The notes under the pieces are model-generated. The model saw only the letters and a list, made by a program, of their open reading frames with translations. It searched no databases and had not been told where the DNA came from. Both the position numbers and the translations under genes were made by a program. Shown piece after piece: positions 32,303 to 56,549 of a DNA stretch of 64,000 nt. Numbering within the stretch: position 1 is the first letter of the stretch; every line of letters starts with the position of its first letter. Origin of the DNA: Nitrosopumilus sp. (lineage in GTDB: Archaea > Thermoproteota > Nitrososphaeria > Nitrososphaerales > Nitrosopumilaceae); the NCBI GenBank assembly GCA_965218785.1, contig OZ244650.1, positions 32,001 through 96,000 of the forward strand, written 5' to 3'.

Positions 32303-32399
32303 TTCTATAAAAAAATCATTCAAACCCATTAAGATATGATCAAACAGGGCAGTTTTTTTGAATTTAGAGAAAATCCATATTTTTGAGCCTTGACCGTAT

Positions 32400-32487
32400 C
32401 AAAATCATTCCTCTGGAATTTTTTCAAAACTATCATGTCACACACCAACTAGTTTGTAGGTCTTTTTTTTGGCTTTGAAATCTGCAT
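32400..32487 (-). pseudogene. hsdS 5' stub directly after hsdM
   Basis: MQISKPKK/TYKLVGV*HDSFEKIPEE* resembles the N-terminus of the 31001 HsdS. Confidence 0.5.
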
Positions 32488-32490
32488 TTT

Positions 32491-33981
32491 TTACACCTCA
32501 AAGCCTAGTTTTTTGAGATCTGCAGTTACTTCCTTTTCTAATTCTTGACGTTTATTTTTGAGTTGGGAAATTTCTTTTATAGTTTTTTGAATATCTACAA
32601 TTTTTTCAGGCTCTGAATTGTCAATGTAACGTCTTACATTAAGATTCCAATCATTATCTTTAATGTCCTGAAGCGTAATTACTTTGGATTTATCTGATTC
32701 GTCTTTTTTAGCATACTTTGATACAACATCTGGTAAATCATTTTCTTCAACAGGTTTACGTTTATCATCAAGTGACATTCCATCTGCTTGAACATCATAT
32801 AGCCAAACTTTGTCAGTACTTCCACCTTTAGTGAAAAATAATACAGCAGTAGATACTCCTGCATATGGTTTGAATACACCTGAGGGTAAATACACAATTG
32901 CATCTAGTTGACATTTCTCTAAGAGTAATTTTTTTGTATTTAAATGTACTTTAGAGGATCCAAACAAAACTCCCATTGGAACAATAATTGCTGCACGTCC
33001 TCCATTTTCTAAAATATTATAAAATAATTCAATGAACAGTAATTCTGTTTTCTTTGTATCTAATATAAATTCATTATTTAGAGAATCTTTATCAATTGAA
33101 CCTTTGAATGGTGGATTTGCCATTACAACTTGATATTTTGATGATTGCTCAAATTGTTTTGATAATGAATCTGTTCTTGTAATGTTTGGGTGTTCAATTC
33201 CATGTAGAATCATGTTAAATGTTCCAATTCTTAGCATAGTTCTATCTATATCATGACCATAGAATGTATCCTCACGTAATAGACTCCATCGGTCTCCAAG
33301 TTTTTCTCCTATTGGTCCTTGCTCTTTGAGAATTTTTACACTAGTATTTTGTTTAACGATATACTCGTATGAATTAATCAAAAACCCACCAGTACCACAC
33401 GCAGGATCACAAATCTTCTCACCAATCTTTGGGTTGATGATTTCAGTCATCATTTCAATAATATGTCTAGGTGTACGAAATTGACCATTCTTGCCTGATT
33501 GTTGCAGTTCACTAAGTAACTCTTCAAAAATATCTCCTTGAACATCTGGTCTGTGGTGAGAGATATCTAATTGGTCAATAATACTCACTGCTTCTTGAAG
33601 TAGTGATGCTTTTTCAATTTGAAATGAGGCATCACTCATAGTTTCACTAAATAATGTTTTTTCTCCATGATGAAGATCTTTGATAAATGGAAATACTCTA
33701 TCTTTTACATGTGCAATTATTTCTTCTCCATACATATTTTTCCATGAAGACCACTTACAATCCGTAAATGGTTTTTTATCCTTATCTAATCTATCAAAAA
33801 TTGATTCAAACTTTTCGTTTCCAGCTTCTGTTCTTTGGCGGTCTGCTGAATCTAAAACTTCAATTCTTCTCATAAATATTAGATAAGAAATCTGTTCTAC
33901 TACTCGTAAAGTATCAGTAATTCCTCCCTCCCAAAACTTTTGCCATAGTTGTCTTGCAAGTTTTTTTGCTTCGGGTTCCAT
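32491..33981 (-). CDS. hsdM: Type I R-M methyltransferase (N6-adenine)
   Basis: GQFRTPRHI, DPACGTGGFL, NPPF, LPSGVFKPYAGV. Confidence 0.94.
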   Translation of the reverse strand: MEPEAKKLARQLWQKFWEGGITDTLRVVEQISYLIFMRRIEVLDSADRQRTEAGNEKFESIFDRLDKDKKPFTDCKWSSWKNMYGEEIIAHVKDRVFPFIKDLHHGEKTLFSETMSDASFQIEKASLLQEAVSIIDQLDISHHRPDVQGDIFEELLSELQQSGKNGQFRTPRHIIEMMTEIINPKIGEKICDPACGTGGFLINSYEYIVKQNTSVKILKEQGPIGEKLGDRWSLLREDTFYGHDIDRTMLRIGTFNMILHGIEHPNITRTDSLSKQFEQSSKYQVVMANPPFKGSIDKDSLNNEFILDTKKTELLFIELFYNILENGGRAAIIVPMGVLFGSSKVHLNTKKLLLEKCQLDAIVYLPSGVFKPYAGVSTAVLFFTKGGSTDKVWLYDVQADGMSLDDKRKPVEENDLPDVVSKYAKKDESDKSKVITLQDIKDNDWNLNVRRYIDNSEPEKIVDIQKTIKEISQLKNKRQELEKEVTADLKKLGFEV

Positions 33982-35042
33982 TACTCATTTACCTTTCTTT
34001 TCAAGATTTTACAAAATTTTACCATCTCTAAAAGTTCTTCTTTTTCAAAAAAGTTTGTAGCTGATTTACCCATATTGCTAAATGGAAGATCAAAGAAATC
34101 AACATATTCAATATTTTTCTTTGAGAGAAATAATGCTTCTAAAATCCTAATAAAGTTGATTTGTTCGGGATTGAATTTTTTTGATAACAAAAATCCTGCA
34201 AATGCCTCTCCAATCATATCTTCTTTGTTTGATAGTTTTACTAGTCCCAAAATATGTCTGATAAACTCTACAATGTCTCTTTTTGGAGTATTGTATGCTT
34301 TACTTAGTGTCTCATCTGTAATTCCAAGTTCTGATGAATTCAAAGTATCTGCAAGTGATTCAATGTCTTCTTGAGTGATTTGTTCATCATTTTTAATTTT
34401 TAAAATAACTGGATTAGATTCTGCTAACTCTCGAATCTTCTTTTCAACTTTTTCAATATATATCTGAGAATCAACTGATTCTCTTTCTGGACCATACCTT
34501 ATAGTATCACGTTGTTGAATCACATCATCCATTCTAATCAAAATGGTCTGCACAGGCTCAGATTGCTGATAAATCATTATAGGGGACAATTCATCTCTAA
34601 TTTGACATATTTTCTCAATAGTAATATCATCCCAAAAAATTTTTTCAGTTAGCATTGTTTTAATTAACTGTCTTTTATCTACAATCTCTTCAATACTATC
34701 CGGAATTTTAGTCAGTGATGCACAAATCTCATCAATTAGTTTTTTTGGATTTTCTTGCTTCCACCACTCTGAAATATGATCAAATTCAAGTTTTGCAAGT
34801 AATAACTGCTCACACTTGTAAACAAATGATGCGGGCTTTAGTGAAACATCTGGTTTGTATTTCATTAATGGCATAATTCTTTTTTTTAAGAAAATCAATG
34901 GATCTAGTCCTCTTGTATTCCAAAAGTTTGGGTTCAAAGCAGTTTCAATATCTGCCATATGTGAGGACACTGATTCTGAATCTTTTGGCAGACTTTTCAC
35001 TTCATCAATAATTGATTGTTTAATTTTATCAAAATCATCCAT
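33981..35042 (-). CDS. hsdR: HsdR C-terminal part (EcoEI_R_C-like)
   Basis: Overlaps the N-terminal part by 8 nt; F..EQINFIRIL...PF C-terminal pattern. Confidence 0.7.
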   Translation of the reverse strand: MDDFDKIKQSIIDEVKSLPKDSESVSSHMADIETALNPNFWNTRGLDPLIFLKKRIMPLMKYKPDVSLKPASFVYKCEQLLLAKLEFDHISEWWKQENPKKLIDEICASLTKIPDSIEEIVDKRQLIKTMLTEKIFWDDITIEKICQIRDELSPIMIYQQSEPVQTILIRMDDVIQQRDTIRYGPERESVDSQIYIEKVEKKIRELAESNPVILKIKNDEQITQEDIESLADTLNSSELGITDETLSKAYNTPKRDIVEFIRHILGLVKLSNKEDMIGEAFAGFLLSKKFNPEQINFIRILEALFLSKKNIEYVDFFDLPFSNMGKSATNFFEKEELLEMVKFCKILKRKVNE

Positions 35043-36819
35043 TTCTTTGAACCATCCTTTTGTATTGATTTAGTTTAGTGAGCAGTATTCTTGTAGCAAT
35101 TGCATCAGTAGGTTTTGGAATATCTCCTTTTGGATGCATTTCAAAGAAATCAAAATTTCCCATATAATCAAATATCAAAAACATATCTTTACCAGTTATT
35201 GGTAACCAATCTTTATTTTCACATATAGAATTATGCCTAGTTCCTCTACCAATCATTTGCCAAAAGCGAATCTTTGATTTTGTTGGTCGTGCAAAAACTA
35301 GATTACAAACTTCAGGAATATCTACTCCGGTATCTAAAATCCCAACAGAGATTACTATGCGTGGTAGACTGTTTTTCTTAAACTGTTTAACTAGATCTTT
35401 TGCTTTACTATCTTCCGAACTGATTAGTTTTATCATCTCACCTTTGTATACTTTATACATTTTTTCAAATTCCTCTAAGATAATTTTACCATGTCTAATT
35501 GACGTTGGAAAAATTATTGTTTTACAAGGCAATCCTGCATCATCTGTTAAACAATTTTCCATAAATTCTTTAATCCATGCTTTATTTGTGCCTGTAACTG
35601 AGATTTTTCTTTCAATATCAGTTCCTTCAAAGTTTAATTCTTCTTCTTCAATTCCTTCTTCTGCCAGTAATCTTATTTTCTCTTCATCAGGTATATCATC
35701 TGGTCTAATACCCTCTATCTGAAAATGTGATTTGACTGGAAATGCTTTGAATGGAACAAGATATCTTGGAACTGCCTGTTCATAACTAAATAATGATGTT
35801 GGAACACCATTTTCACATTCAAATGCATCATATGTGTCTCTTGCAATCATATCTGCCGGAGTTGCAGTAAGACCTACTTGAATTGCATCAAAGTATTGAA
35901 ATAGATTTTTGAATTTATTAAAAATAGAACGATGTGCCTCATCTGAAATGATTAAATCAAAGAATCCAATCGAGAATTCTTTGAAAACATTTTCCATTGT
36001 TTGTAAAGTTGAAACATAAATTCTTGAATTAACATCTACTTTTTTAGAAAATACTTTTTGTTTTGCCTCATTTGGGAAAAATTTTACAATGTTATCATCA
36101 AATGCCTGTGTTCGTAACTCATCTCTATCTACTAAAAATAATATCCTTTTAGCTCTTCTTGCCTTTAACATCATATCAATTAATGCCATAGATACTCTAG
36201 TTTTTCCTGTTCCTGTAGCTTGTACTATGAGAAATTTTCTTTTTACTCCATTTTCAATTCCGTCTAATATGCGCTCTGTTGCTTCAATTTGATATGGTCT
36301 ATTAATAATCTCCTCACGAATTTTTATTTCAGAAAAGCTTTTTTTGTTTTGATTTTGATAAAGATTTTCTTCTAAATCTTCTCTTGAATGAAACCTCAAA
36401 ATTTTTCTTGGATTAGAATGCCCTTTATTCCAAAACCAAATATCTATTCCATTTGTTAAATAAATAAAAATATCTGAATTAATCTGATCTTTGATGTCTT
36501 TGGCATATCCTTCACCCTGTGTTTGTCCTGCTATTCGTGAATCTTTTGATGTGCGTTTTGCTTCAATTACTGCTATTGGATTACCATTGTTATCTAATAA
36601 AACATAATCTGCATAGGCTTTTTCTTCTTTTAAGCCGATAGTATCTTTTCTTGTTTTGTAATCTCTTGTCTTAAAATCTGAATTTTTAGTATCTACTTCT
36701 TGTTTTACAATTGATACATCATCAGTATCCCATCCTGCTTGCTTGAGACGTTTGTCAATTCTATTTTTTCTAGTCTCGGCTTCTGTTTCTTGACTCAACT
36801 CTATATCTGTATAGTCCAT
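35035..36819 (-). CDS. hsdR: HsdR N-terminal nuclease/helicase part (EcoAI/EcoKI-like), split gene
   Basis: ADYVL..IEAK, QATGTGKT, DEAHRS, LTATP, TGVDIP, QMIGRGTR. Confidence 0.88.
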   Translation of the reverse strand: MDYTDIELSQETEAETRKNRIDKRLKQAGWDTDDVSIVKQEVDTKNSDFKTRDYKTRKDTIGLKEEKAYADYVLLDNNGNPIAVIEAKRTSKDSRIAGQTQGEGYAKDIKDQINSDIFIYLTNGIDIWFWNKGHSNPRKILRFHSREDLEENLYQNQNKKSFSEIKIREEIINRPYQIEATERILDGIENGVKRKFLIVQATGTGKTRVSMALIDMMLKARRAKRILFLVDRDELRTQAFDDNIVKFFPNEAKQKVFSKKVDVNSRIYVSTLQTMENVFKEFSIGFFDLIISDEAHRSIFNKFKNLFQYFDAIQVGLTATPADMIARDTYDAFECENGVPTSLFSYEQAVPRYLVPFKAFPVKSHFQIEGIRPDDIPDEEKIRLLAEEGIEEEELNFEGTDIERKISVTGTNKAWIKEFMENCLTDDAGLPCKTIIFPTSIRHGKIILEEFEKMYKVYKGEMIKLISSEDSKAKDLVKQFKKNSLPRIVISVGILDTGVDIPEVCNLVFARPTKSKIRFWQMIGRGTRHNSICENKDWLPITGKDMFLIFDYMGNFDFFEMHPKGDIPKPTDAIATRILLTKLNQYKRMVQRNG

Positions 36820-37409
36820 CCTTTTAGAGATGTCGCTTTATCCCAAGTATGAGGCGGATGAATTCTTTTTTTCTTTCATGAAAAAGATCGTAATAACTTA
36901 TCTAATCAAACTTGATTTTGATAATATCTATAGGAGTGTTTTCAGGTTTTGCCTTGGATTTGGTTGGTAAAATTGATGATTGCTGATGTGTTCAAATCCA
37001 TTCATTCTTTGACTAGGCATAAATTTATGGGATTCTGCTAGTATCATCTGAAATTTTGTCTAATTGACTACTGATATCATTCATAGTTTGATTCAGTAAT
37101 TTTATCTCTTCTAGAACCAACTTTAGTGTATCATTAACGTCGTTTATATGAAGAATTTCATCTGTGCCCATATTTTACTACCCAGCAACATCAATAAAAA
37201 TAGTAACTATGGTCTGTTCTGTCTTGAGAGCACTGAATCTCTTGAATCAAACATCTGGTTGAAAATATCTTCCAGTATTGTATTCTTCTGCACACATATC
37301 GAAAAGACGCATGTATGATTTTTCATTATATTGTGAGTTTACAGGACATCATATTCCTATATGTTTTGATCTTGACTCTATATGTTCTGTAGGATCATCT
37401 GGGGATGTG

Positions 37410-37604
37410 ATGAAATATGGATCTTCTCTGGATTGAAAATCCATCTTTATCCGTACTGATTCCCAGAAGCATTTTGAATCAAAATATTCCCTTTGTTGAA
37501 ACTATTCTCCAAAATACCTACTCTTGCTGACACACGATAACTTCACAGCATCGATCAAAATTGAAGATAAAAAATTGATTATTACGAGTTCAAAATAAAA
37601 ATGA
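37410..37604 (-). repeat. outer inverted repeat, left copy (195 bp identical to 48099-48293)
   Basis: Base-by-base reverse-complement match; imperfect extension into the hsdS 3' ends. Confidence 0.95.
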
Positions 37605-37633
37605 GTCTAAATACAAATGATTTATAATCAAAC

Positions 37634-38899
37634 CTAAACCCTGATTTTGCCCGACATTAATTTTGGGAGAAGTGAATCACGAATTTTTATCAAATTTTGT
37701 ATTGAAATATTATTTGATAATAATTTTTCAAAAATAAGATTCATAGTGCCATTCATTTTTTCTAATATTTTTGAAGATGGAATGGTAATTAGAGCTTCTG
37801 ATAAATGATGTCTTTGGATGTGACCCATAGTGGTTACTTTTCCTTCTGCAATTCTACAAAATCTAGGTAAATGAAATCGTATCCATTCATAGTAAAACCA
37901 CTTCTCATATTTTTCAGAAATTACTTTGAAAATATGTTGATTTAAAGCACCTTTACCATAATGCCACATCATTAATTCTAATGTACCTGACCATGAAAAT
38001 AAAATATCACCATTTTCAACAACATATTTTTTCTCTAAATCAACTCTGGCTTTTTCAATATTTGAAGAAAATCCATTTTTCATTTCTCGTATTTTAATGA
38101 CAGGTAAATAATTATTTGTCGTTGGTCTGAATTTTTGCAACGGTAACCCATTAATGAAAATTACAATTTTATCCAGTGCTTTTAATTCCCACCCTTTTGG
38201 AATCTCCTTTCCCAGTTCTTCATTATACTCCATTTCCCCATCCGACGACTTGTACGGTTTTCCATTCTCATCTGGGAACTCATAGTCAACAAACCATGAT
38301 TTGAAGATTGTTTGGGATATTTGTTCTAAGATCTGATTCATATTTCGATTTAATTCAATTTTAGAGTCTAGGTCTGAAAGAATTTTTGAAATTGTGGCCT
38401 GTTCATTTTTCTCAGGTATCTGAACAATAATTTGATCAAATGTATTTCTTGTAATAGTATTGAATACAGAACCATGTGTATTTGATTGTAAATCTTTTAT
38501 TTTAAACTTCAATAAATAATACAAAAAATCATTCTGTATTGCATTTTTTCCGTCTAGCCCATAACAAGATTGATTAAATGCCATATCTTTAGTGACTTGT
38601 CCAATTTCACCAACTGTGCCTCTAGCAGAAATAACCAACTGTCCTTTATGTAATAATTTTGTTGAACTTTCTTGTAAGCCTTTTTCTGTAATCGTTTTTG
38701 TGGTTTTGTAGATCTTTTTAATATCTCCAACAAAATCATTTATAGAAATCCAAGGTATACTACCATTCCAATAATTTGGATTTGATGTTTTAGGAGTTCC
38801 TCCGCCAATAATGTGTGTAATTTGAGAAAGAGGTTGAACTTTCCAATTTTTAGGAATCATTCCAAATTCTGTTTGTTTGAAATTTGTTTTTTGTTTCAT
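37634..38899 (-). CDS. hsdS: Type I R-M specificity subunit (intact)
   Basis: IPKNW, GGGTP, EQ..I..ILSDLDSKIELN, IFKSWFVD, IPKGW, RDSLLPKLMSGKIRV. Confidence 0.94.
   Translation of the reverse strand: MKQKTNFKQTEFGMIPKNWKVQPLSQITHIIGGGTPKTSNPNYWNGSIPWISINDFVGDIKKIYKTTKTITEKGLQESSTKLLHKGQLVISARGTVGEIGQVTKDMAFNQSCYGLDGKNAIQNDFLYYLLKFKIKDLQSNTHGSVFNTITRNTFDQIIVQIPEKNEQATISKILSDLDSKIELNRNMNQILEQISQTIFKSWFVDYEFPDENGKPYKSSDGEMEYNEELGKEIPKGWELKALDKIVIFINGLPLQKFRPTTNNYLPVIKIREMKNGFSSNIEKARVDLEKKYVVENGDILFSWSGTLELMMWHYGKGALNQHIFKVISEKYEKWFYYEWIRFHLPRFCRIAEGKVTTMGHIQRHHLSEALITIPSSKILEKMNGTMNLIFEKLLSNNISIQNLIKIRDSLLPKLMSGKIRV
38193..38302 (-). repeat. central inverted repeat, left copy (110 bp identical to 47380-47489)
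   Basis: Exact reverse-complement match in the hsdS central conserved region. Confidence 0.95.
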
Positions 38900-39348
38900 T
38901 ATCTTTATTAATTTACTTCTATATCTTAAGGTTGTTGTAGAAAATAAAATTATTGTTTAATTACCTCAAAAGATAGATTTGCATTATAGATTTATAATCA
39001 TTGAATATGTATAGCGAGATGCACAAGTTTGTAAATTATTTTCAGGATATTCCAATTTTATTATTCATATTTACCTTGGATAAATCCATCAATCTCTAAT
39101 TTTTAGATGATTTTTGGTTTATGAATTTTGTCTTTTCGTTATATGTGGTTTTTCTTCAATTAGATACAACAAAAAATAAAATATGTATGTATTAATGAAT
39201 TATGTAACAATCTCACATAATAAAATATTAAATCAATCAATTTTAATTTTTTTTAAATTTATCCAAGTATTTTTTTAAATTTATAAATCAGATAAATAAT
39301 TTGTTTTGACATAGTATTTTTTATTTATAAATATTTTAATGAACACTA

Positions 39349-40674
39349 TTGAAGAAATTATTGAATACCACAAACTTTAAGAAAATATCTTTTAATGATT
39401 TCTGTAATCTGAATTCTATACGATATTGGCGTGAGCAATTGAACGATGCAAATATAAAAAACATAACAAATAAATCACAACTTGGTGGGACAAGAAATGT
39501 CTATACATATGGATTACTGGAGTTTCATAATTGGTTATTAGATAGAGAATTTCAATATGTTGCGGATATACAGATCAAAGAAAATATAATCCAGCAATGC
39601 AAAGTTGATGTACGTCTAGATGGTGTCGAACACTTACTAGATCTAAATAGAAAGAACATATCCAATAAAACAAGTTTTGCATGTCTAATAAAACAATATT
39701 TGGCAGAATTATCATCATACAGAAAACAATCAACAGTAAAAAACTCAATGTACTCAATAAGATCATTCTTCAGAGAAAACGAAGCAGACATTTCGTTTAG
39801 ATTTAAGCATAGGATCAAGAGAAATTATAAAAAATATGTAGAAAAATCATTATCTCTTGCAGATTTGCAAAAAATCCTTACAGTAAGAGATATTCAGTCA
39901 ATAGAAAGAGCCGTATTTCTGTGCAAGTTTCATAGAGGTCTAGATAACGCTACATTTGCTGATAGATTTAACTTTGAAGTGTGGGCATGTCTTCTAAAAC
40001 ACTTTGGTTCAGACATTCCAGAAAAATGGGATCTGAACAACATTCCAGTACCAATACGTCTTGTGAGAGTGAAGACGGGATTTACCCATACAGGATTTTT
40101 AGATCTGGATTCGATTGTAGCAATAATACAATATGTAAAGACTAGATACGACAAACCACAAATCAATAAGGCATTGTTTGTTGATACAAAAAATAGACCA
40201 ATTACAACAAACTGGATATCAAGAAGATTTCATAAATTAGTCATGAGAATTGATTTACAAGATAACATAAAACAACAATCGACTAAAGGGTATACCTCAC
40301 ATGAAATGAGAGATCTACTTAAATCTACTTTGATTGATTCTGGATGTAGAGTAGATGTAGCAGATCATGTTATAGGTCATGTTCCAAAAGATTCGTATGA
40401 GAAACAATCTTTATTATATCCTGAATCATTGATGAGAGAGTTTATGCGTGCATCACATCGTGTTAATATTATTACAAACAATTCTCAAAATAATCATGCT
40501 GTAAATTATTCTTTATTGCATGATGTAAATTGCCGATCAAAATATAACAATATTGTTGATATTGAAATTACACTTAAAAATATTCAAAAGGATATGATTG
40601 TACAGAGAGAGAAACTTTCACATATGGAAAGATTGTTTGATATTTCAACTAAATCAGAAGTACGTAATACATAA
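39349..40674 (+). CDS. tyrosine recombinase/integrase
   Basis: RVKTG, HEMR (HxxR), HVIGH, DSY. Box-I region reads HRGLD rather than G.R. Confidence 0.8.
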   Translation: MKKLLNTTNFKKISFNDFCNLNSIRYWREQLNDANIKNITNKSQLGGTRNVYTYGLLEFHNWLLDREFQYVADIQIKENIIQQCKVDVRLDGVEHLLDLNRKNISNKTSFACLIKQYLAELSSYRKQSTVKNSMYSIRSFFRENEADISFRFKHRIKRNYKKYVEKSLSLADLQKILTVRDIQSIERAVFLCKFHRGLDNATFADRFNFEVWACLLKHFGSDIPEKWDLNNIPVPIRLVRVKTGFTHTGFLDLDSIVAIIQYVKTRYDKPQINKALFVDTKNRPITTNWISRRFHKLVMRIDLQDNIKQQSTKGYTSHEMRDLLKSTLIDSGCRVDVADHVIGHVPKDSYEKQSLLYPESLMREFMRASHRVNIITNNSQNNHAVNYSLLHDVNCRSKYNNIVDIEITLKNIQKDMIVQREKLSHMERLFDISTKSEVRNT

Positions 40675-40831
40675 CATAGAGATTTATATTAATAAAGAAG
40701 AATTAATTTCAAGAAGAATATGATAAAAAAATTACAAAATTCAATATTCAACCAGATCTATTGCAAAGATTATAATGGATTATTTTTACATGGGATGAAT
40801 ATGAGCTAAAATTCTAACTGCAGGTGAATAA

Positions 40832-43800
40832 ATGAAAAAAATAATTTCTGAAGCAGACGTTGAAGAAAATGTTCTAGATATTCTAAAAGATTTAGGTTAT
40901 GAAATAATTCTAGGAAAAAATGAAGATTATCTTCCAGGCGGAAATAACTCATTAAGAGATAGCTATCAAGATATCATATTAGAAAACCGATTACGTAACG
41001 CTTTAAAACAAATTAATCCATCAGTATCTGATTTATCAATTGAACATGCAATAAAACAAGTTTTGCGAAACTCCAGTCAGAAGTTTATTGTAAACAATGA
41101 GAATTTTCACAAAATGCTCGTAGATGGAATAGACGTACCATCACAAAAGGATGTGGAAAGATACGAAAAAATATGGCTTTTTGAGTTTGATCCAAAAAAA
41201 ATCCATAATAATGATTTTGTTGCAACAAACCAGTTCACAGTAATAGAAAACAATATGGAAAGAAGACTCGACATAATACTCTTCATTAATGGTATTCCGT
41301 TACTAGTTTTTGAGCTAAAAAACTTGGCAGATGAAAAGGTAGACATTTGGACTGCATATAATCAATTCCAAACGTATATGGAACAGCTTCCTACTTTGTT
41401 CAAATTCAATGAAATACTTGTAATTAGCGATGGAATACAAGCAAGAGCGGGAACTATAACTTCAAACAAGGAACGATTCATGGAGTGGAAAACAGTTGAT
41501 GGTCATGTATCAAAGAAAAATTTGACTGCAATTGAAATTCTTTTGCGTGGATTATGTGACAGACAAAAACTCTTAGATATAATTAGAAATTTTATTATTT
41601 TTGAAAAGAACAAGAAGATAACAAAAAAACTTGCTGCATATCATCAATATCGAGCTGTAAACAAGGCAGTAGAATCCACAATCTGTGCTAGAAGAAAAAA
41701 TAAAAAAGCAGGTATAATTTGGCACACGCAAGGCTCCGGCAAATCATTAACCATGATATTTTACACAGGAAAGCTTGTCCGAGAGCTCGACAATCCAACT
41801 ATAGTTGTATTAACCGATAGAAATGATCTTGATGATCAACTGTTTGGTACTTTTGGCAGATGTCAGGATATTCTGAGACAAAAACCCAAACAAGCAGACA
41901 AGAGAACAGATCTTGAAAAACTAATCAATGTATCTTCAGGAGGTATTGTATTTACAACAATTCAGAAATTCTTTCCAGATAAAGATAGGAAGAAATATCC
42001 TGTATTGTCTGAACGAGATAATATTTTTGTGATTGTGGATGAAGCACATAGAAGTCAATATGGTTTTTCTGCCAAGATCGTAAATAAAAAAGACAAAGAA
42101 ACATTGATCACATATGGTTACGCAAAATATCTCAGAGATGCACTACCAAACGCATCGTTTATTGGTTTCACGGGAACACCAATCGAAAAATCTGACAAAT
42201 CAACTCCTGCAGTATTTGGTAAATATGTGGATTCATACGATATAGAACAAGCAGTAGAAGATGGTGCAACTGTGAGAATTTATTATGAAAGTAGACTTGC
42301 CAAACTGGATCTAAAACTAGAAGAAAAACCAAAAATTGATAAAGAATTTGAAGATGTGACAGAAGGAGGAGAAGAAGAGGAAAAAGAAAAATTAAAAAGC
42401 AAATGGGCAAGAACTGAAAAGATAGTCGGCTCTCCCAGACGAATAAAAAGAATAGCAAAAGATATTGTGGATCATTTTGAAGAACGAACCTCGATTTTCG
42501 AGGGAAAGGCAATGATAGTGTGCATGTCACGAAGAATCTGTGTTGATTTACATGACGAGATAACAAAACTTAGGCCTTTATGGCACCACAACGATGATGA
42601 TAAAGGAATAATCAAAGTAGTCATGACGGGTTCAGCTTCGGATCCAAAAGAATGGCAAGAACATATACGGAACAAAGCCAGAAGAAAGATAATTGGAGAT
42701 AATTTCAAAGAAGAAGAAGAAAAGCCACAGATCATCATTGTAAGAGACATGTTTCTTACTGGATTTGATGCTCCATCTTTACACACAATGTATCTGGACA
42801 AACCAATCAAGGGTCACTCTCTCATGCAAGCAATTGCAAGAGTTAACAGGATATATCCTGGAAAAGAAGGTGGTCTAGTAGTAGATTATATAGGAATAGG
42901 TGCGGATCTAAAAAAAGCATTAGTGGACTATACCAAAAGTGGTGGAAATGGTAAACCTGCTTTTGATCAAAACCAAGCAATATCACTTATGCTTGAAAAA
43001 TATGAAATTGTAAGGGATATGTTCTACGGTTTTGATTACAGAGAATTCTTTGATCTCAAACCCAATCAGAGAATCTCATTTATACCTGATGCTATGGAGC
43101 ATATTCTAAAGGAAAAAGGAAAGAAAGAGAGATTTGAAAAAGAAACTACAGCACTTTTGAAGGCATTTTCTCTTGCTGTGCCAAGTGACAAAGCAATGAA
43201 TATTAAAGACGAAGTAGGATTGTTTCAAGCAATTAAATCTGCAATCACCAAAACAATTGAATCCAAAAATATACTCAAAGGTGAGTTTGATGCAGGAATT
43301 AAACAAATTCTTTCAAAGGCAGTAGTATCTGACAGAATAGTAGATATATTTGAAGCGGCAGGATTACAAAAACCAGAACTCTCAATATTATCCGAAGAAT
43401 TTCTAAAAGAAGTCAAAGAAATGCCTCAAAAGAATCTTGCATTTGAAGCACTTAAAAAATTACTTAATGATGAAATTAGATTATTTGCAAAGAAAAATAT
43501 TGTTCAGGGAAAATCGTTTATGGATTTGTTAGATAAAGCTATTAAAAAATACACCAACAGAAGTGTAGATACAGCACAAATCATTGATGAACTTGTGTCA
43601 CTTGCAAGAAAAATAAGAGATGAGAAAAAAAGAGGAAAAGATCAAAATCTTTCAGATGATGAGATTGCGTTCTATGATGCACTTGAGGTTAATGACAGTG
43701 CAGTCAAAATTCTTGGTGATAAAGTGCTACAAAAAATTGCACTAGATCTGACTGATATGATACGAAATAGTGTAACAATAGATTGGACACAAAGAGAGAG

Positions 43801-43936
43801 TGTTCAGGCAGGAATTAGACTGAAGGTTAAAAAGATTCTTAGAAAATATGGATATCCCCCTGACAAGGAAAAAAAAGCTACCGAAACCGTACTCAAACAA
43901 GCTGGTGTAATTGCAAAGAGCTGGGCAGAATCTTAG
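40832..43936 (+). CDS. hsdR: Type I R-M restriction subunit
   Basis: [48 protein letters not shown]. Confidence 0.95.
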
Positions 43937-44288
43937 AAAATTCTATATTTTTTGTAATAAACTGAATTGATTAGATTATCCAGAAGAATTAGTTATAAAA
44001 TAGAACAATGTATGTCTTAACCTATAGCGAAAAGACAAAGTTCGTGAACTAAAAATCATCAAAAAACTAGAGAAATTAGCGGATTTTATCCAAGGTAAGT
44101 ATGAATAATAAAATTGGAATCCTGACAATAATTCATAAACTTATGCTTCTTGTTACATATGACTAATTCAATCATAAGATATAACATTTTAGGTACAAAA
44201 TATTACAAAATATTAATTCATACGAATAATGTGATAAAATGAACAATCTTAATTTATTTTTAGTATTATTATGAAACAAGTATATTGA

Positions 44289-45818
44289 ATGATAAATTCA
44301 TCTAATGTTGTGAATCTTGCATTCGAAGAAAAACTTTGGAAGACTGCAGATAAACTTCGAAGTAATATGGATGCTGCAGAATACAAACATGTTGTTTTAG
44401 GATTAATTTTTCTCAAATATATCTCGGATGTTTTCATCGAAATTTATGATGAATTAAGCAAAGATTCTAATTCAGATCCAGAAGATGTTGATGAATATAT
44501 TTCCAGAAGAATCTTTTGGGTTCCTAAAAATGCTAGATGGAATTATTTTGAAAGCAAAGCAAAAAACCCAGAAATTGGTGAAATTATTGATGATGCGATG
44601 GATTCTATAGAAAAAGAGAATATTTCTCTAACAGGCGTGCTTCCAAAAAGCTATGCGAAACCCAATTTGGATAAACAAAGATTAGGGGAATTAATTGATC
44701 TGATTGGTACAATTAGTTTAGGTGATAAAGAAAATCGAAGTAAAGATATTCTTGGACGAGTATATGAGTATTTTTTAGGACAATTTGCGGATGCCGAAGG
44801 AAAGAAAGGAGGTCAATTCTATACACCTCGTAGTATTGTTAAATTGTTGGTTGGGATGTTAGAACCATACAAAGGCAGAATTTTTGATCCATGTTGTGGT
44901 TCAGGAGGAATGTTTGTTCAAAGTGAGAAATTTATAGACGCTCATGGTGGAAAGATTAGAAACATCTCTGTATTTGGTCAAGAAAGTAATCAAACAACTT
45001 GGCGCTTATGTAAAATGAATATGGCGATTAGGGGAATTGATGCAAATATAAAATGGGGGGATTCTTTTAGAGATGATCAATTCAAAGATTTAAGAGCAGA
45101 TTTCATATTAGCTAATCCACCGTTTAATGATAGTGATTGGAGTGGAGAGTTATTACAAGATGATGTACGATGGAGCTTTGGACCACCTCCTAAAGGTAAT
45201 GCAAACTTTGCATGGATTCAAAATTTCATACATCATCTTTCCCCAACTGGAATTGCAGGATTTGTTTTAGCTAATGGCTCTATGACTTCTAACATATCTG
45301 GTGAAGGAGATATTCGTAAGAACATCGTGAAGGCAGATCTGATTGATTGCATGATTGCATTACCCTCTCAATTATTTTATAATACAATGATCCCTGCTTG
45401 TTTATGGTTTGTATCACACAATAAAAAAAAATATAAAATTAGAGATAGGCAAAAACAAACACTTTTCATTGATGCACGTAAAATGGGTGAATTAATTGAC
45501 AGAAGACATAGAGCATTAACAGATGACGACATAGAAAAAATTTCAGATACCTATCATATGTGGCAAGGAAAAATTGATAAAAAATATGAAGATGTATTAG
45601 GATTTTGTAAATCTGTTTCTTTAGAAGAGATAAGAAAACATGAATGGGTTTTATCACCGGGTAGATATGTAGGAGTGAAGACAGAAGAAGAAGATCCAAT
45701 AGAATTTGAAGAAAAAATGAAACAGTTAACAGCAAAGATTGCAAAACAAATGAATGAAGGAAAGATACTTGATGCAGAGATAAGAAAAAATTTAGCGAGT
45801 ATTGGATATGAATTCTGA
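44289..45818 (+). CDS. hsdM: Type I R-M methyltransferase (N6-adenine)
   Basis: [31 protein letters not shown]. Confidence 0.95.
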
Positions 45819-46791
45819 TAAAACATTAATCTTAATGGACACAAATAAAACTAGAAACATATTAGATGGTTCTCCTCGTTATGATGAATTTGATTTTGGA
45901 AGAGATTTCAAAGTATTAAAGTTGTTTATTGATAAAAATAATTTATCGGATAATATAATTTTAGCAATCACTGAAATGACATTAAAAGAATTACTTGTAC
46001 AAAAAAAGAAGACATATGAAGATGATAAAGAAAATCTAAGATCTGCATCAACTAGACTAAGAACTTTAAAAAATGTAGTAGTTATTCCTGATTTTACTCT
46101 ACCTGATAATTCTTTTGATTGTGTTAACTACCTTGATCCAATAATAAATGAATTCTTAAAAGAAAACAATATTACAATTATTAAAGTTGAAGATAGTAAA
46201 AAATCATCAACATTTGATGCATTAATTCAAAGGGCTATCGATAGAAAACCTCCTTTTAAGCCAGGAAAAAATAATAATTTTGGATCTGGGTTTAAAGATG
46301 CAATTATCTGGGAAACATTCAGTCAAAATGATATCAAAAAAAGTTGTGATAATATAATATTATTTACAAATGATAATGATTTTAATGGATGCGAGAAGGA
46401 AATCAACGATGTTAATTTTAAGATAATTAAATCAACAGGAGAATTAATTGATGAACTTGAATCAATATATGACACACAGATACGTATTAAAAAATATGAA
46501 AAAATATTAGAAAATCAATATTTTGAGAATAATCTTAAACATAATATTGAATTAGAGTTAGACCATACAATAGATGATATCAATATAGTTTCATTGCGTG
46601 ATCAAATTATAGACGATCCAATAGACTTGAAAGAAAAATTCCATTCTCTAAATAAAAATGAAGAATATTTTGAAAATATGATATGTTTAGTTAGCAATAT
46701 CCGGATTTTAGATGATGAGTACATAATATACAGTCTAATAGATCTTGGTCCTAATACAATTATAACAATTCAGGTAGAGAATAACCCATGA
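45802..46791 (+). CDS. PIN-domain protein (DUF4935-like) embedded between hsdM and hsdS
   Basis: [29 protein letters not shown]; overlaps both neighbours. Confidence 0.75.
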
Positions 46792-48069
46792 AACAAAGAT
46801 TCAAGCAGACAGAAATTGGATTAATTCTAGGGAATTAGAATTTTGAAGAATTAAATAAACACGCAAACATCATAATGGGTCAATCACCAAAATCTAAGTA
46901 CTATAATTCTGATGGAAAAGGAATTATATTTTTACAAGGTAATAGAACATTTGATAGAATACATCCAAGATATGATACATGGACAACCAGAGTAACAAAA
47001 CTAGCAAGAAAGATTCAGTGTTTGTAAGTGCACGAGCGCCTGTTGGTAAAGTAAATATTGCTTGTGATGATTTATGTATTGAACGAGGTTTAATGTCTAT
47101 TTCTGGAGACAATAATAAATTTATTTTTTATTTATTTAAAGCATACAAGAGTCACATTATCAGTAAAGAAACAGGAACTATATATGGTTTAGTAACCAAA
47201 GCAAGTATTTTAAACTTCAAATTTCTATTTCCAAGTTTGCATGAACAAGATCAAATTGTTAAAATCCTCTCCGATCTTGATTCTAAAATAGAACTCAATC
47301 ACAAAATAAACAAAACTCTAGAACAAATAGCCCAAACAATCTTCAAATCATGATTTCATGACTTGTTTAGCTAGTCCATAAATCATGGTTTGTTGACTAT
47401 GAGTTCCCAGATGAGAATGGAAAACCGTACAAGTCGTCGGATGGGGAAATGGAGTATAATGAAGAACTGGGAAAGGAGATTCCAAAAGGATGGAGAAATT
47501 GCAATCATAATGAACTAGGAGATTTTAAAAATGGTATAAATTTTTCAAAAAATGAAAATGGTGATTCATCTTTTTATATAATTAACGTACGGGATATAAT
47601 TAAAAATAATTTTGTGTTAGAATCTACGTGTGATGTGATAAACATAGATTTCAATAAAGCCAAAAAATATTTGTTAAAAGAAGGTGATATAATACTTGCT
47701 AGAAGTGCAAGTCCGGGGGAAGTTATTTTTATTTATGAATTTAATAATAAATTAATTTATTCTGGATTTAGTATACGATTTAGATCTTTTAATCCTATAC
47801 ATAGAATTTATTTATTTCAAAATTTTCAATTAATACAAAATATTATCAGATATAATCTTTCAGATGGCACAACTCTGAAAAATATTACTCAAGAAACGTT
47901 AAAACAAATCCAAATTCTTATTCCTGATGATGTGTTGCTTATTAGATATAACATACTTATTAAAAATATACATAAAAAGATAGTCTTATTATTGAAAGAA
48001 AACAGATCATTAATTTCTATTCGTGATTTCTTATTACCAAAATTAATATCGGGTAAAATCAGAGTTTAG
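46788..48069 (+). pseudogene. hsdS: second hsdS: TRD1 broken, TRD2 open
   Basis: [16 protein letters not shown]...MGQSP; frameshift near 47000; 35-bp insertion at 47353-47387; 47449-48069 open to LLPKLISGKIRV. Confidence 0.88.
47380..47489 (+). repeat. central inverted repeat, right copy
   Basis: 110 bp identical to the reverse complement of 38193-38302. Confidence 0.95.
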
Positions 48070-48098
48070 GTTTGATTATAAATCATTTACATTTAGAT

Positions 48099-48293
48099 TC
48101 ATTTTTATTTTGAACTCGTAATAATCAATTTTTTATCTTCAATTTTGATCGATGCTGTGAAGTTATCGTGTGTCAGCAAGAGTAGGTATTTTGGAGAATA
48201 GTTTCAACAAAGGGAATATTTTGATTCAAAATGCTTCTGGGAATCAGTACGGATAAAGATGGATTTTCAATCCAGAGAAGATCCATATTTCAT
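48099..48293 (+). repeat. outer inverted repeat, right copy
   Basis: 195 bp identical to the reverse complement of 37410-37604. Confidence 0.95.
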
Positions 48294-48335
48294 GTCTATA
48301 TCCACATAACTTGGGATAACCGAAAAAACAGAGTT

Positions 48336-48875
48336 TTAAATCCGCGAGGCCACATCAAAGAATGCAGAGTTTGTCTCCTCGATTGTTTTTGAACCTACAA
48401 TGATCCCTTTTCCTGATGTAAACAACAACGCAACACAGCTATCCTGAATCCGGTAAATCAATCCTGGAAACTGTTCTGGCTCGTAGATGCATCTGGGCAG
48501 TGTTCTTGCCAGAGTTTCTATTGAAAGTTTTCTACCCATATCAAACCTTGATACGATGTTTCTTACCTGTGGTGTGATCTTGACAGGCTTTACCAAATCA
48601 TAATTCCGCAGTATCCTGCATGCCTTGCGCAGTTCCCGTCTTGCCTGCTCTGGGCTTTTTGTACCCACGGAGATCAGCTTTCCGGTTCTAAAGACTGTCA
48701 CTCTACCTGTCATAACGTCATCTTTTACATATCCACATCGATACAGCTCCAGATTTGCACTGAGATGTTCATATTTGTTAAATGATTTTAGGTTGACTTC
48801 CTGCTTGAGGTCAGCAGTACACACTGTATTTTGAATCTTGATCTCTGATCGAAGCTTGATATCTGATTTTTTCAA
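48336..48875 (-). CDS. tbp: TATA-box binding protein paralogue (divergent)
   Basis: Two TBP repeats: IQNTVCTADL...VFRTGKLISVG.KS and RNIVS...YEPEQFPGLIYR...LFTSGK. Confidence 0.88.
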   Translation of the reverse strand: MKKSDIKLRSEIKIQNTVCTADLKQEVNLKSFNKYEHLSANLELYRCGYVKDDVMTGRVTVFRTGKLISVGTKSPEQARRELRKACRILRNYDLVKPVKITPQVRNIVSRFDMGRKLSIETLARTLPRCIYEPEQFPGLIYRIQDSCVALLFTSGKGIIVGSKTIEETNSAFFDVASRI

Positions 48876-48931
48876 CTCTAATTGTTTTTGTAATCCCCTG
48901 TTTTAAAAACACTCACAGTAAAACACATTTT

Positions 48932-51577
48932 TTATTTTCCAAAAACAGAAAAGAACTCTAATGCGCCTTTTTTTGAAAGTTTTTTATTTTTTGTAAGACA
49001 GTAGTTTGTGGTAAACGTACATCTTGGACATCCCTCCCACTCCCCATCTTCCTGATTGGAGTCTGCCGAACAATCACAGTCATTAACAAGCATATATGAC
49101 GCGGCCAGTATTTTTTCAAATTCATCAAAAATCATCCTGCTGTATCCGTTAAATCCGTTTGATGAGTTGTCATAAAGATAGATTACTCCATCTTCATAGT
49201 ATGCATCTATCTCGTTTGATTCTGACTTTGTAATGATCTTCGATGCGTTAATCAGCATGTGTATAACCGTATGAACTCGATAATCTGATGACATTTGACT
49301 TTTGGATCCAGAATCTATTTTTAAAACAAATTCTGATGGAATATCTATCCTGACTGCAGAATGCCTTGATCTCCAATTAAAGTTGCGCCATGCCGGAATG
49401 TCTGCACCATTAAACGTCTCAAACTTTTCTATTGATTCATTATAATTTCCCTTTAGATATCCAATAACTGTTTTATTTATTTCGACCATACCATAACGCA
49501 ACTGAATTTTTCTAGAGTTCATTATAACTTCCCTATATACTGCATCATCTGAAATTTCAGTAATTGATGTTATAATAATCGGAATCGTATTTTTTTGTAT
49601 TTCATCTGATTCCTTCAGGCGAGCTATTGCCCCGTTTCGAGATTTTGTTAACGATTCCACCTTGTAGGTTTGTTTGTTAAAATGATAAATTGCATCCTGG
49701 TGCAGCTGGTAATATCCCATGGGAATCCCTCTGGTCCCTATCTTTTTTGAATTATGATAAATTTCAATCTCACCTGACACCCCACGCAAATTGACACTAT
49801 TTGCAAAGGCAAAAAATTCAAGCTTGTCTGGCGTCATAACTGATCGTTTTTCAACCTCCACTGACTTTGTATGTTTTTCAGAAATGATAGGATTTTCTTT
49901 GTTAATTGAAATGATGTGCCTCTGTGCAAGATAATCCTTTATGTGCCGGGCAAAATAATGACATGCTGCATCATCTGGATCAAACACGCATACGGCATAT
50001 GATTTTTGTCCCATTCTTCCTGCACGCCCAATTCTTTGAACAAAAGAGTCATACTCGTTTTTAAACGCTGAAATTACCACATCCACACGACCTATGTCGA
50101 TTCCAAGCTCTAGTGTGGGCGTGCAGGATAACGCGTCTAATTCCCCTGCCTTCATCTGCAATTCGTAGAGTTTTCTATCCCTCTGATTAATGCCCCCTCT
50201 GTGAACCTGTATCCTGATTCTCTTGTTTGATTCTTCCAGATTTGATGCAAGAAACTCTGCGTTATTGTGGGAATTACTGAAAATCAACTGTGTAGAACCA
50301 TTTTCATAGCAAATTGACGCTAGCCGCTCCATGGTCGTCCTTTGTCCAAATTTTCTTGGCATGATAAAGATCATGTGCATGTCATGTTTTCTTCTGATCT
50401 TGCTTTTGATGTGTGAAAATGATTCTATAGGCAGATCAAACATATCGGAAAAAAACTCCCTGGAATTATCAAGTGTCGCAGAAGAGCCGACAAACTGGAC
50501 TTTACTCATGTACCTCTTCATTCGTTTTAACACGTGATACACGTTTGATCCATGAAAACTAGTGTAGGAATGGGCCTCATCCATTACAATTATTTTTGCA
50601 TTTTTGAACAGATGGCGCCATTTTTTATCCTGTAAAATCAGATGATAATTGATAAAATCAAAATTTGTTGCAATGATAACTGATTTTTTATATGAATCTG
50701 AAATGACTTTCTCCTTATATTCGGGATTCTGACCGCCGTGAATAGAGTAAACGCCTACAGTGCTGTTTAATCCGCATTTTTCAATTAGCTCTGATATTTT
50801 TGCTACCTGATCATCAATTAACGCATTTAATGGATATACAAACAGTGCAAAGACTCCGCGTTCTTTTACTTTGGAGATTTTCTGTAAAATCGGAATGGTA
50901 AATGCTTCGGTTTTACCAGAACCCGTGGGCGCCGATATTATCGAGTTATCCCCCTTTAGAATACGGCGAATCGTCTCTTCTTGGAATGGCAATAATCCTG
51001 AAAATCCGTATTTCTGTATTCCGCTTCGGATGTTTTCAGATAAAATATCCTTCAAGTTGTTAATGGGAATTTTCTCTGGTTCTGGAGCAGTCATGTTTTC
51101 ATAGTGAATTATGCCTAGTGTCTCTTCTTTGTGGCCCTGGATAATTTCATTAATTATTTTATCTTCATTTAGTAGTGATTCTGGAATTTTACTGATGTCA
51201 AAGAGGATGTCTGATGATATCGGTGTTGGTGATGTTGGTGTCTCTGGTTTTATGACTTTGGGCTTTTGTTTTTTATATTTTTTAATTTCATCTGGATAAT
51301 ATGGTTCGGCTGATTCTATGGGGCCATCACATTGATGCGGTCTGTCTGTCCGGGAATCCATTGGAATGAATTTGCCGCTGTCGGACTTGAATTCCTCATC
51401 CCAGTATATCTCGGTCCCGCATCCTTTATTGCATTGTTTTGTCTTTGAGTAATTAATTCCATATGCCGGTCTTTTTTTAACGACTAATTCAGGATTACAT
51501 CTTGGACAAATCCATGATGCTCCCACATCTTTTGAATTCTGCAAAAGTCTAGTATCACAATCTGAACAGAATTTCAT
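48932..51577 (-). CDS. DEAD/DEAH helicase of the Hrq1/SftH/MrfA (DUF1998) type with N-terminal Zn ribbons
   Basis: Likely start MKFCSDC (51577); PTGSGKT, YPLNAL..DQ, DEAH, SAT, LELGIDIG, QRIGRAGR; C-terminal CDC...GCPRC...C. Confidence 0.85.
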   Translation of the reverse strand: MKFCSDCDTRLLQNSKDVGASWICPRCNPELVVKKRPAYGINYSKTKQCNKGCGTEIYWDEEFKSDSGKFIPMDSRTDRPHQCDGPIESAEPYYPDEIKKYKKQKPKVIKPETPTSPTPISSDILFDISKIPESLLNEDKIINEIIQGHKEETLGIIHYENMTAPEPEKIPINNLKDILSENIRSGIQKYGFSGLLPFQEETIRRILKGDNSIISAPTGSGKTEAFTIPILQKISKVKERGVFALFVYPLNALIDDQVAKISELIEKCGLNSTVGVYSIHGGQNPEYKEKVISDSYKKSVIIATNFDFINYHLILQDKKWRHLFKNAKIIVMDEAHSYTSFHGSNVYHVLKRMKRYMSKVQFVGSSATLDNSREFFSDMFDLPIESFSHIKSKIRRKHDMHMIFIMPRKFGQRTTMERLASICYENGSTQLIFSNSHNNAEFLASNLEESNKRIRIQVHRGGINQRDRKLYELQMKAGELDALSCTPTLELGIDIGRVDVVISAFKNEYDSFVQRIGRAGRMGQKSYAVCVFDPDDAACHYFARHIKDYLAQRHIISINKENPIISEKHTKSVEVEKRSVMTPDKLEFFAFANSVNLRGVSGEIEIYHNSKKIGTRGIPMGYYQLHQDAIYHFNKQTYKVESLTKSRNGAIARLKESDEIQKNTIPIIITSITEISDDAVYREVIMNSRKIQLRYGMVEINKTVIGYLKGNYNESIEKFETFNGADIPAWRNFNWRSRHSAVRIDIPSEFVLKIDSGSKSQMSSDYRVHTVIHMLINASKIITKSESNEIDAYYEDGVIYLYDNSSNGFNGYSRMIFDEFEKILAASYMLVNDCDCSADSNQEDGEWEGCPRCTFTTNYCLTKNKKLSKKGALEFFSVFGK

Positions 51578-51881
51578 TAATAATTTTTGTAAATATACCA
51601 TTAATGAATAGTGCTTTGTTGAACAAGACATCCTGTATTCTCAATAGATCACTATTCCACTAACAAGAACTTCTCCCGTCAGTATGTATTCAAATAAACA
51701 TTGGATTTAGATCTGATTCTTTCATCAGTAATAGTACATGAAATGTAATAGACATCTCAAATTCAATTGAATTGATCATTACAAAAACTGATCACTGATT
51801 TTCTAGTAAGAGTGTCATTTTAATAAATTCACATAAAAAAATTAGCGAATGATTTAAGGAGCCGACTTTATTAAAAAAATT

Positions 51882-56247: not shown

Positions 56248-56549
56248 GAAATTTCACATCTAAAAATAGCAATTCATCTGAAAGTCCACAATACATCAAA
56301 AACAATGTAATGTGATTAAATCCAAAATAATTTTATGCTCTTCTTGAATGGTCCGTATCATTTCTTTGTTGGTAAAATTCTGCTAGAATTGTAACGCCTT
56401 GATACATAGACTTTTTGAACAAGTTGGAGGGTAAGATCCAGGGCTAGAATGTCTGAAAATACGTATGAATTTAGCTTTATTTTACATGGGATGACAAGAA
56501 ATCCCTATTAGTTTCATCATCTACTCATAATTATGAGTGGAATAGGAAC

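Follow-up and report, generated by a model that had tools for sequence, protein, structure and literature searches.

A candidate hsdS inversion switch with its own tyrosine recombinase in a Nitrosopumilus Type I restriction-modification locus

We analyzed a 64,000-nt stretch of DNA (the window, on which all coordinates are based) from a Nitrosopumilus sp. whose genome, G000, comprises 2.0 Mb in two contigs. Positions 37410 to 48293 hold a restriction-modification locus of Type I in which two outward-facing copies of the specificity gene hsdS, connected by long inverted repeats, enclose genes for a tyrosine recombinase, the restriction subunit HsdR, and the modification subunit HsdM. This locus is probably a recombinase-driven hsdS inversion switch; it would represent a known kind of switch in a phylum new for it, operated by a separate clade of recombinases.

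Genes were called by Pfam profile search, repeats were located with a repeat finder, and perfect repeat blocks were checked by script (Table 1). Pfam matches and open reading frames (ORFs) bore out the layout of the original prediction, which had two hsdS copies (left, hsdS-L; right, hsdS-R) flanking a recombinase-hsdR-hsdM-PIN series. All parts of a Type I enzyme are present. HsdM matched the N6-adenine methyltransferase family PF02384 (369 bits) and the N-terminal domain PF12161 (91 bits); HsdR comprises a nuclease N-terminus, an SF2 motor, and a C-terminal domain (PF04313, PF18766, and PF11867, respectively) and scored 633 bits against TIGR00348 (cut-off 285); and HsdS-L matched PF01420 in two stretches (137 bits), corresponding to two target-recognition domains (TRDs). 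The locus also has several of the features by which epigenetic invertons are recognized, namely at least two hsdS genes or parts of them, an inverted repeat within hsdS coding sequence, and a locus-encoded recombinase (PMC7672463; cited here, like all sources below, for the accessible part of its text). Such invertons were defined by Huang et al. (2020), and the invertase clades described are PsrA, TvrR, BfiA, EfiA, MfiA, and HvsR (PMC7672463).

Table 1. Features of the hsd locus and its surroundings in the window
Feature	Position	Strand	Remarks
hsdS of second Type I system	31001-32302	+	Pfam
hsdM of second Type I system	32491-33981	-	Pfam
hsdR of second Type I system, EcoEI-type	33981-36819		two ORFs, 594 and 353 aa, 8-nt overlap
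IR1 left arm	37410-37684	.	last ~50 nt of hsdS-L and 225 nt downstream; no core-like site
hsdS-L, intact, 421 aa, two Methylase_S stretches	37634-38899	-	TRD1-L ~38306-38899; TRD2-L ~37685-38188
IR2 left arm	38189-38302	.	38193-38302 perfect; encodes central linker KSWFVDYEFPDENGKPYKSSDGEMEYNEELGKEIPKGW
Single 22-nt core, candidate crossover site	38284-38305	-	within 26-nt imperfect palindrome
Dispersed repeat copy, ~150 bp, not locus-specific	38996-39153	.	between hsdS-L and recombinase
Tyrosine recombinase, 441 aa	39349-40674	+	PF00589; candidate catalytic R196 K242 H318 R321 H344 Y350
hsdR, 1034 aa	40832-43936	+	Pfam, TIGR00348
Dispersed repeat, second copy, inverted	44020-44172	.	upstream of hsdM
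hsdM, 509 aa	44289-45818	+	Pfam
PIN_12-domain gene inside hsd operon	45802-46791	+	Pfam; same place (hsdM/hsdS) in G098
TRD1-R and central conserved region of right hsdS, pseudogene	46788-47344	+	start overlaps PIN stop
35-bp insertion: degenerate second core and 13-nt spacer	47345-47379	+	directly 5′ of IR2
Two right cores	47342-47363 and 47377-47398	+	sequence comparison
IR2 right arm	47380-47493	.	repeat finder, script
TRD2-R, silent, 192 codons open in IR2 frame	47494-48069	+	ORF analysis
IR1 right arm	48019-48293	.	48099-48293 perfect
TBP gene	48336-48875		right of locus
Defence-type helicase, resembles SngC, BrxHI, DruE	48932-51631		right of TBP

Two pairs of inverted repeats (IRs) connect the hsdS copies. 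The repeat finder gave the outer pair, IR1, as 275 nt at 96% identity and the inner pair, IR2, as 114 nt at 99% identity. Perfect inverted blocks of 195 bp within IR1 (37410-37604 / 48099-48293) and 110 bp within IR2 (38193-38302 / 47380-47489) had been predicted; the script verified both exactly, and neither could be extended by a single base. The sequence next to them is less alike: the peptide LSDLDSKIELN, found in both copies (38348-38380 / 47267-47299) and predicted to differ at many synonymous sites, differs at 8 of 33 nt, all synonymous, and the conserved region just upstream of the core site described below is ~80% identical between left and right over 104 bp. Since the perfect blocks adjoin synonymously diverged coding DNA and are far more alike than it is, the two hsdS copies have recently exchanged sequence, in agreement with the predicted homogenization.

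The right hsdS (46788-48069), counted as an hsdS copy in the original prediction, is not a single open gene. Its TRD1 is interrupted by a TGG to TAG change at codon 17 (46836-46838) and by one frameshift. Owing to a 35-bp insertion, TRD1-R and TRD2-R are in different reading frames, and PF01420 was matched in two pieces. The copy is open only from IR2 to the stop at 48069; TRD2-R is, as expected, silent yet open, with 192 codons beyond IR2. The two TRD2s, called unrelated in the original prediction, are so at the DNA level, but as proteins they are 30% identical; they therefore share a fold and very likely differ in specificity.

Inversion was modelled by script: segment 38303-47379 was flipped and the ORFs were compared. 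This segment between the IR2 arms contains TRD1-L, the recombinase gene, hsdR, hsdM, the PIN gene, and the dead TRD1-R. Flipping it gave an intact 428-aa hsdS ORF at 46783-48069, whose first 180 residues are those of HsdS-L and whose last 190 are those of the TRD2-R ORF; the other product was broken. The predicted joining of the left TRD1 to the right TRD2 by inversion at the central repeats thus holds in silico. Because hsdS-L has its own upstream region, of which 450 bp moves along with TRD1-L on the flip, hsdS expression would be independent of orientation. A flip at IR1, modelled in the same way, left the 421-aa hsdS unchanged and created no new allele.

The locus recombinase matched PF00589 at 31.2 bits (cut-off 27.1), and 17 of 18 aligned family members matched this profile. 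Tyrosine recombinases carry their catalytic residues in the order R-K-H-R-H/W-Y. R196 is nearly invariant in the 18-sequence alignment and K242, H318, R321, H344, and Y350 are invariant; as they follow the expected motif order, these six are candidate catalytic residues. G000 has two PF00589 genes in all, the locus recombinase and one other. Searches of NCBIfam, PADLOC, and PDB (sequence and profile) returned no match to the recombinase. A collection of 5.8 billion proteins yielded 430 relatives at E ≤ 1e-5, of which the few with a name are thaumarchaeal and labelled hypothetical protein, integrase, or tyrosine-type recombinase. Genome contigs gave no match when scanned with the single recombinase and 35 loci when scanned with the family alignment.

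The closest relatives (57-61% identity) are encoded in G150 (61%), G009 (58%), and G054 (58%). Each of these three genes lies directly upstream of hsdR and on the same strand, in a Type I locus beside TBP, and each of the three loci has an inverted hsdS pair. No hsd genes were found within ~1.5 kb of 26 further family loci (25 paralogues and a remnant in G082). A maximum-likelihood tree, midpoint-rooted for drawing only, placed G000, G054, G150, G009, and the disrupted G082 copy on one side of a branch with 100/100 support and 13 sampled paralogues on the opposite side. At E ≤ 1e-100 the clade was present in 4 of 401 genomes sampled from the taxonomic family, all in this genus, and in none of 302 genomes from 26 other genera. 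The recombinase is a member of a thaumarchaeal integrase family whose hsd-linked members form a clade of their own among the sampled members. The hsd genes themselves do not follow this grouping: hsdR and hsdM of G054 are of another type (35-45% identical to those of G000), while the hsd genes of G000 are 75-81% identical to those of G098, whose locus has the order hsdM-PIN-hsdS-hsdR and lacks a recombinase. The arrangement of recombinase plus hsdS pair therefore spans two Type I enzyme types. The comparison with relatives proposed in the original prediction has thus added three other species with a clade recombinase upstream of hsdR, inverted hsdS pairs, and a shared core.

This core is an imperfect palindrome of 22-26 bp in the FKSWFVD-coding region, common to the loci of G000, G054, G009, and G150. 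In its 26 nt, two 10-nt arms flank a 6-nt centre, as they do in core sites of tyrosine recombinases, and we regard it as a candidate crossover site. The surrounding repeats differ among the loci: (i) in G054 the two hsdS copies face outward and their central regions share a perfect inverted repeat of 62 nt; (ii) in G009 the copies are convergent and 13.7 kb apart, with TBP between them and a perfect repeat of 77 nt; and (iii) in G150 they are convergent and 5.8 kb apart, again with TBP between them, and have perfect repeats of 97 and 69 nt. Inversion at the core in G009 (L019/L057) and G150 (L053) would flip the TBP gene together with the TRD2 cassettes. Relative to the core, the perfect repeat is placed towards TRD1 in G054 and G009 and towards TRD2 in G000, and the 22-nt core is the only part common to the repeats of the four loci.

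Allowing up to two mismatches, the 22-nt core was found in 9 of 151 genomes of the genus, including four of the five with a clade recombinase; the reversed pattern, used as a control, was found in one genome. Of the 15 FKSWF[VI]D sites in the genus, 12 belong to these loci or to remnants of them and agree with the core at 20-21 of 21 bases; the remaining three, in other hsdS genes, carry 2-4 synonymous differences. G098 encodes FRRWFVDFEF at this position, without the core. The core is thus kept at synonymous sites in these loci and not in other hsdS genes, which points to a constraint acting at the DNA level, in a small sample of related genomes that are not independent.

All four loci combine one hsdS copy with a single core and a partner with two cores 35 bp apart, the duplicated cores being separated by a conserved 13-nt spacer. 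Since 35 cannot be divided by three, the reading frame is always broken across the centre of the duplicated copy. The duplication and two lesions together silence TRD1-R in G000. In G054 the duplication comes after a good TRD1, and the partner copy lacks 1 nt ahead of its centre; the assembled genome has intact hsdM (519 aa) and hsdR (1019 aa) and no hsdS ORF longer than 218 aa. Flipping the G054 segment in silico at the 62-nt repeat produced a 409-aa hsdS right after hsdR. G054 would therefore look like a switch caught in a truncated state, or else its complementary lesions may have arisen by chance.

Orphan TRD2 half-cassettes, arranged head to head, occur in G036 (L022 7446-7541) and G145 (L058 8977-9037). 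The cassettes carry either three 35-bp core units in tandem or, where they meet, a perfect arm-arm palindrome, and no hsdM, hsdR, or clade recombinase was found near them. We read these cassettes as remnants; aberrant recombination at the core may have produced them.

Proteins from relatives also bear on the mechanism. A search with the TRD1-L of G054 recovered full-length HsdS proteins with a 72-77% identical TRD1; no exact chimera of this domain was found in the search of longer proteins. Two of the proteins, P0242 and P0244, agree in 195 of 195 aligned columns of the N-terminal part, through FKSWF, and are 16% identical in TRD2. A third, P0243, has a 98% identical N-terminal part (191 of 195 columns) and a TRD2 of 16-19% identity. 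The breakpoints lie at or just before FKSWF, no substitutions intervene, and two linker types follow the motif. No TRD1 above 77% identity to that of these three proteins was found in the 151 genomes of the genus. Since their N-termini match and their TRD2s are unrelated, one TRD1 has become linked to three different TRD2s, which supports the mechanism in relatives, not in G000.

According to the mechanism that we propose, the locus recombinase would flip the segment at the 26-bp palindrome, which overlaps the FKSWFVD codons at the repeat's TRD1-proximal edge. Cells would then switch back and forth between two HsdS proteins with one half-site in common, and each switch would change the methylation motif together with the restriction target. 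The 35-bp duplicated core would hold the partner copy out of frame, and a crossover at the first core would yield a truncated HsdS, i.e. an OFF or half-subunit state. The outer 195/275-bp repeat, which entails no coding change, probably either arose as a by-product when sequence was duplicated or serves homologous exchange as a substrate. More tentatively, a genus-specific integrase clade may have been recruited as an hsdS invertase, with the conserved 35-bp duplication serving as a frameshift lock and with three heritable states (specificity A, specificity B, and truncated/OFF).

Several observations weigh against such a switch, among them the lack of a core-like site in IR1, where the best match has 13 of 26 mismatches (random windows typically have 11-12). 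This is what exchange and heteroduplex repair would leave behind if TRD2 were inverted or exchanged by host homologous recombination across the 110/195-bp blocks, a route for which the recombinase is not required. The perfect identity of the blocks, which exceeds any plausible core, fits this route too, and spnIII recombination is reportedly independent of all known pneumococcal site-specific recombinases (PMC6620402). For the archaeal tyrosine integrase IntpTN3, identical segments of as little as 104 bp are enough to recombine (PMC8371274), so that site-specific and homologous routes may be hard to separate. We nevertheless consider host recombination alone quite improbable: the perfect repeats of G054 and G009 are just 62 and 77 nt long and are centred on the same core, the core is kept at synonymous sites in four species, and the recombinase clade is linked specifically to these loci.

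Further points against switching come from the sequence collections. The inverted form was seen in no read, contig, or protein. No TRD1-L/TRD2-R chimera was present among the best 120 of 8000 scored HsdS relatives in the 5.8-billion-protein collection, where the best non-self match to HsdS-L was 64% identical. Metagenome contigs held no close relative of TRD2-R, the matches being three loci at 26-28% identity. TRD1-R carries only two lesions, and the open TRD2-R may therefore reflect youth rather than selection; for the same reason, decay of TRD1-R next to an intact TRD2-R is a weak argument. The recovery of hsdS in G054 is likewise weakened as an argument, since chance could yield it in about half of two-lesion cases.

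Three public sequencing runs from two studies (X1, X2, and X3) were examined as k=31 contigs (Logan). They contain 96-99% of the sampled words of 37801-47800. Their contigs end at the repeat borders (37575, 38222/38273, 47409/47460, and 48013) and therefore carry no information on orientation. No joint between the left core and the first right core was listed among the run contigs. An X1 contig of depth 2 that joins 37574 to 48127 on opposite strands was not counted: it differs at 22 positions over 227 bases and so stems from another strain. A lower depth of TRD2-R than of its neighbours (2 vs ~7 in X2; 11.4 vs 17-40 in X3) was considered as a sign of population heterogeneity and rejected, because depth in X1, which shares its sample with X3, is uniform at 33-39 and depths of contigs cannot be compared.

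The same runs bear on whether the repeats are an assembly artefact, i.e. a collapsed sequence or a chimeric join, as the original prediction had asked. We regard this as extremely unlikely. Nothing specific speaks for it beyond the genome being a two-contig assembly, and the runs, with the word coverage given above, reproduce every unique segment with 0 other letters. In X3, the 195-bp block forms its own contig at depth 29.2, about the sum of the adjoining unique TRD2 contigs (17.4 and 11.4), as for real two-copy sequence. The same architecture recurs in three other species.

The remaining contrary evidence concerns the status of the locus as an island. Contigs of X2 and X3, from co-occurring strains, join 37229 to 48322, skipping 37230-48321. 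Homology to the nearest sampled species, G100, covers 48325-49030 (TBP) and then resumes at 62846-64000. Because the run contigs skip the locus and this homology begins at 48325, the whole locus seems to be a strain-variable island inside a larger variable region. The TBP gene thereby sits in the middle of a large strain-variable defence region (37230-48321 and 49031-62845). Multiple copies of the recombinase family occur in the genus: 41 of 151 genomes have a match at E ≤ 1e-20, and the number per genome reaches seven, a pattern typical of mobile-element integrases. In G009 and G150, hsdM is truncated or disrupted (its last 53 residues remain in G150), and the architecture therefore persists in apparently dead loci.

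These findings would also fit a static, integrated or formerly mobile defence island, in which the recombinase is an integrase, the right hsdS a decaying duplicate, and the identical blocks leftovers of a recent duplication or of occasional gene conversion, with no switching at all. Besides the skipped locus, the broken TRD1-R, and the degraded hsdM genes, this reading can draw on the naming of some members of the multi-copy family as integrases and on the nature of the cargo: Type I genes are common in thaumarchaeal integrated elements, with S, M, and R among the top 20 arCOGs (PMC6563490). Still, a static island is in our judgement unlikely. The repeat finder detected no direct repeats of at least 20 nt bracketing 37230-48321, and ARAGORN found 0 tRNA genes in the 64-kb window. 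The hsd-linked recombinases form their own clade and always stand beside hsdR with inverted hsdS genes, even in another hsd type. Blocks of 100% identity beside diverged sequence need repeated exchange and not a single duplication, and G054 regains an hsdS only upon inversion.

Two relatives of the locus show signs of insertion. The G082 clade recombinase (locus L027) is fused to an IS110 DEDD transposase domain, and a 1.4-kb three-copy repeat flanks the hsdM remnant of G150 (L053 11645-13061 and 17559-18959). Insertion sequences appear to be eroding both loci.

Some features of the locus and its neighbourhood stand apart from the question of inversion. The PIN_12 gene overlaps its neighbours by start and stop on both sides and has a 68% identical counterpart in G098 (L021 5330-6295). 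Its protein had no match in NCBIfam or PADLOC, and the gene looks like an accessory gene of this type of Type I operon. To the left lies a second Type I system of another family (31001-36819), whose split hsdR may be either a frameshifted pseudogene or a natural split.

A dispersed repeat of ~130-150 bp has nine copies in G000 (e.g. G000:C1:198540-198690) at 75-100% identity, and more in the genus. It lies upstream of hsdS-L as well as of hsdM, each time in the same orientation relative to the gene, and the contigs over it are of very high depth (12,690 in X2) and continue into many different flanks. Rfam gave no match in the whole window, nor at 38880-39360. The repeat may be an element resembling a miniature inverted-repeat transposable element (MITE) or a shared regulatory element. 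A 20-nt motif at the outer ends of IR1 (37411-37430 and 48273-48292) has 16 copies in the genome at up to three mismatches, against none of the reversed pattern used as a control. Those exact copies that were examined are located outside long ORFs, and two of them mark the outer borders of IR1. The second contig of G000, C2 (3706 bases), has a guanine-cytosine content of 44%, against 35% in the window, and no similarity to the window; it may come from another organism.

Inverted hsdS pairs are known from bacteria. In the hsd1 and hsd2 loci of Mycoplasma pulmonis, two inverted hsdS genes flank hsdR and hsdM, and site-specific inversion leads to chimeric specificity subunits. The present locus shares the inverted hsdS pair around hsdR and hsdM, here in an archaeon and with inversion in silico only. 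Unlike in M. pulmonis, exchange is limited to TRD2, a 5′ repeat is absent, and one of the TRD1s is dead. The SpnIII system of Streptococcus pneumoniae inverts short hsdS segments downstream of a fixed hsdR-hsdM-hsdS operon, giving six alleles, whereas here the whole 9.1-kb operon including the recombinase gene would flip and just two full-length alleles are possible. SpnIII/cod/ivr with PsrA (CreX) nonetheless resembles our locus in its locus-encoded tyrosine recombinase, its one expressed hsdS with silent partial copies, and its several pairs of inverted repeats, and the methylation specificity of S. pneumoniae SpnIII does switch (PMC4948785, PMC7672463). HvsR of M. pulmonis is encoded away from its target loci (PMC7672463), while the recombinase gene here lies within the invertible segment.

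Inversion in clade-2 (TvrR-type) loci with multiple hsdS genes mostly leads to truncated HsdS and thus to ON/OFF switching (PMC7672463). Similarly, the truncated hsdS of G054 is regained on inversion, and a crossover at the first core in G000 would truncate HsdS; truncation here would, however, occur via a conserved 35-bp core duplication, a feature absent from the accessible description (PMC7672463). The cryptic integrated elements of Thaumarchaeota (Krupovic et al. 2019, PMC6563490) belong to the same phylum and likewise have a tyrosine recombinase beside HsdM/S/R in a strain-variable island. They differ in their flanking direct repeats, often in tRNA genes, neither of which was found here, and hsdS inversion is not mentioned in the accessible part of that paper. 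IntpTN3 of Thermococcus nautili is also an archaeal tyrosine recombinase and causes chromosomal inversions between identical segments of ~100 bp, but it comes from another phylum and probably another family and produces large genome rearrangements rather than operating a dedicated gene switch (PMC8371274).

The original prediction knew of no described archaeal case. This holds in part: our literature search found no tested archaeal hsdS inversion, the tested cases found being all bacterial, but euryarchaeal loci with multiple hsdS genes and an invertase homologue are already tabulated (4 of 827 REBASE loci and 11 of 1140 NCBI loci; PMC7672463). In its accessible part, that study has no row for Thaumarchaeota, and no archaeal locus is discussed or experimentally tested. 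The scan for programmed inversions by Milman et al. (2023) deliberately left archaea out (PMC9881135). As far as their texts are accessible, a review of archaeal tyrosine recombinases covers inversions that IntSNJ2 and IntpTN3 bring about and never uses the word "restriction" (PMC8371274), and no archaeal phase-variable system is mentioned in a 2026 review on epigenetics in prokaryotes (PMC13076061).

Invertible hsdS genes give bacteria a reversible heterogeneity of methylome and restriction. Under the more tentative three-state reading, the locus would be the first case in Archaea of a phase-variable switch of methylome and defence. A working switch would mean that an archaeal integrase family has been recruited for gene switching and would provide a defined candidate recombination site. 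It would also extend phase-variable defence and epigenetics to the ammonia-oxidizing archaea, which are among the most abundant microbes of the ocean.

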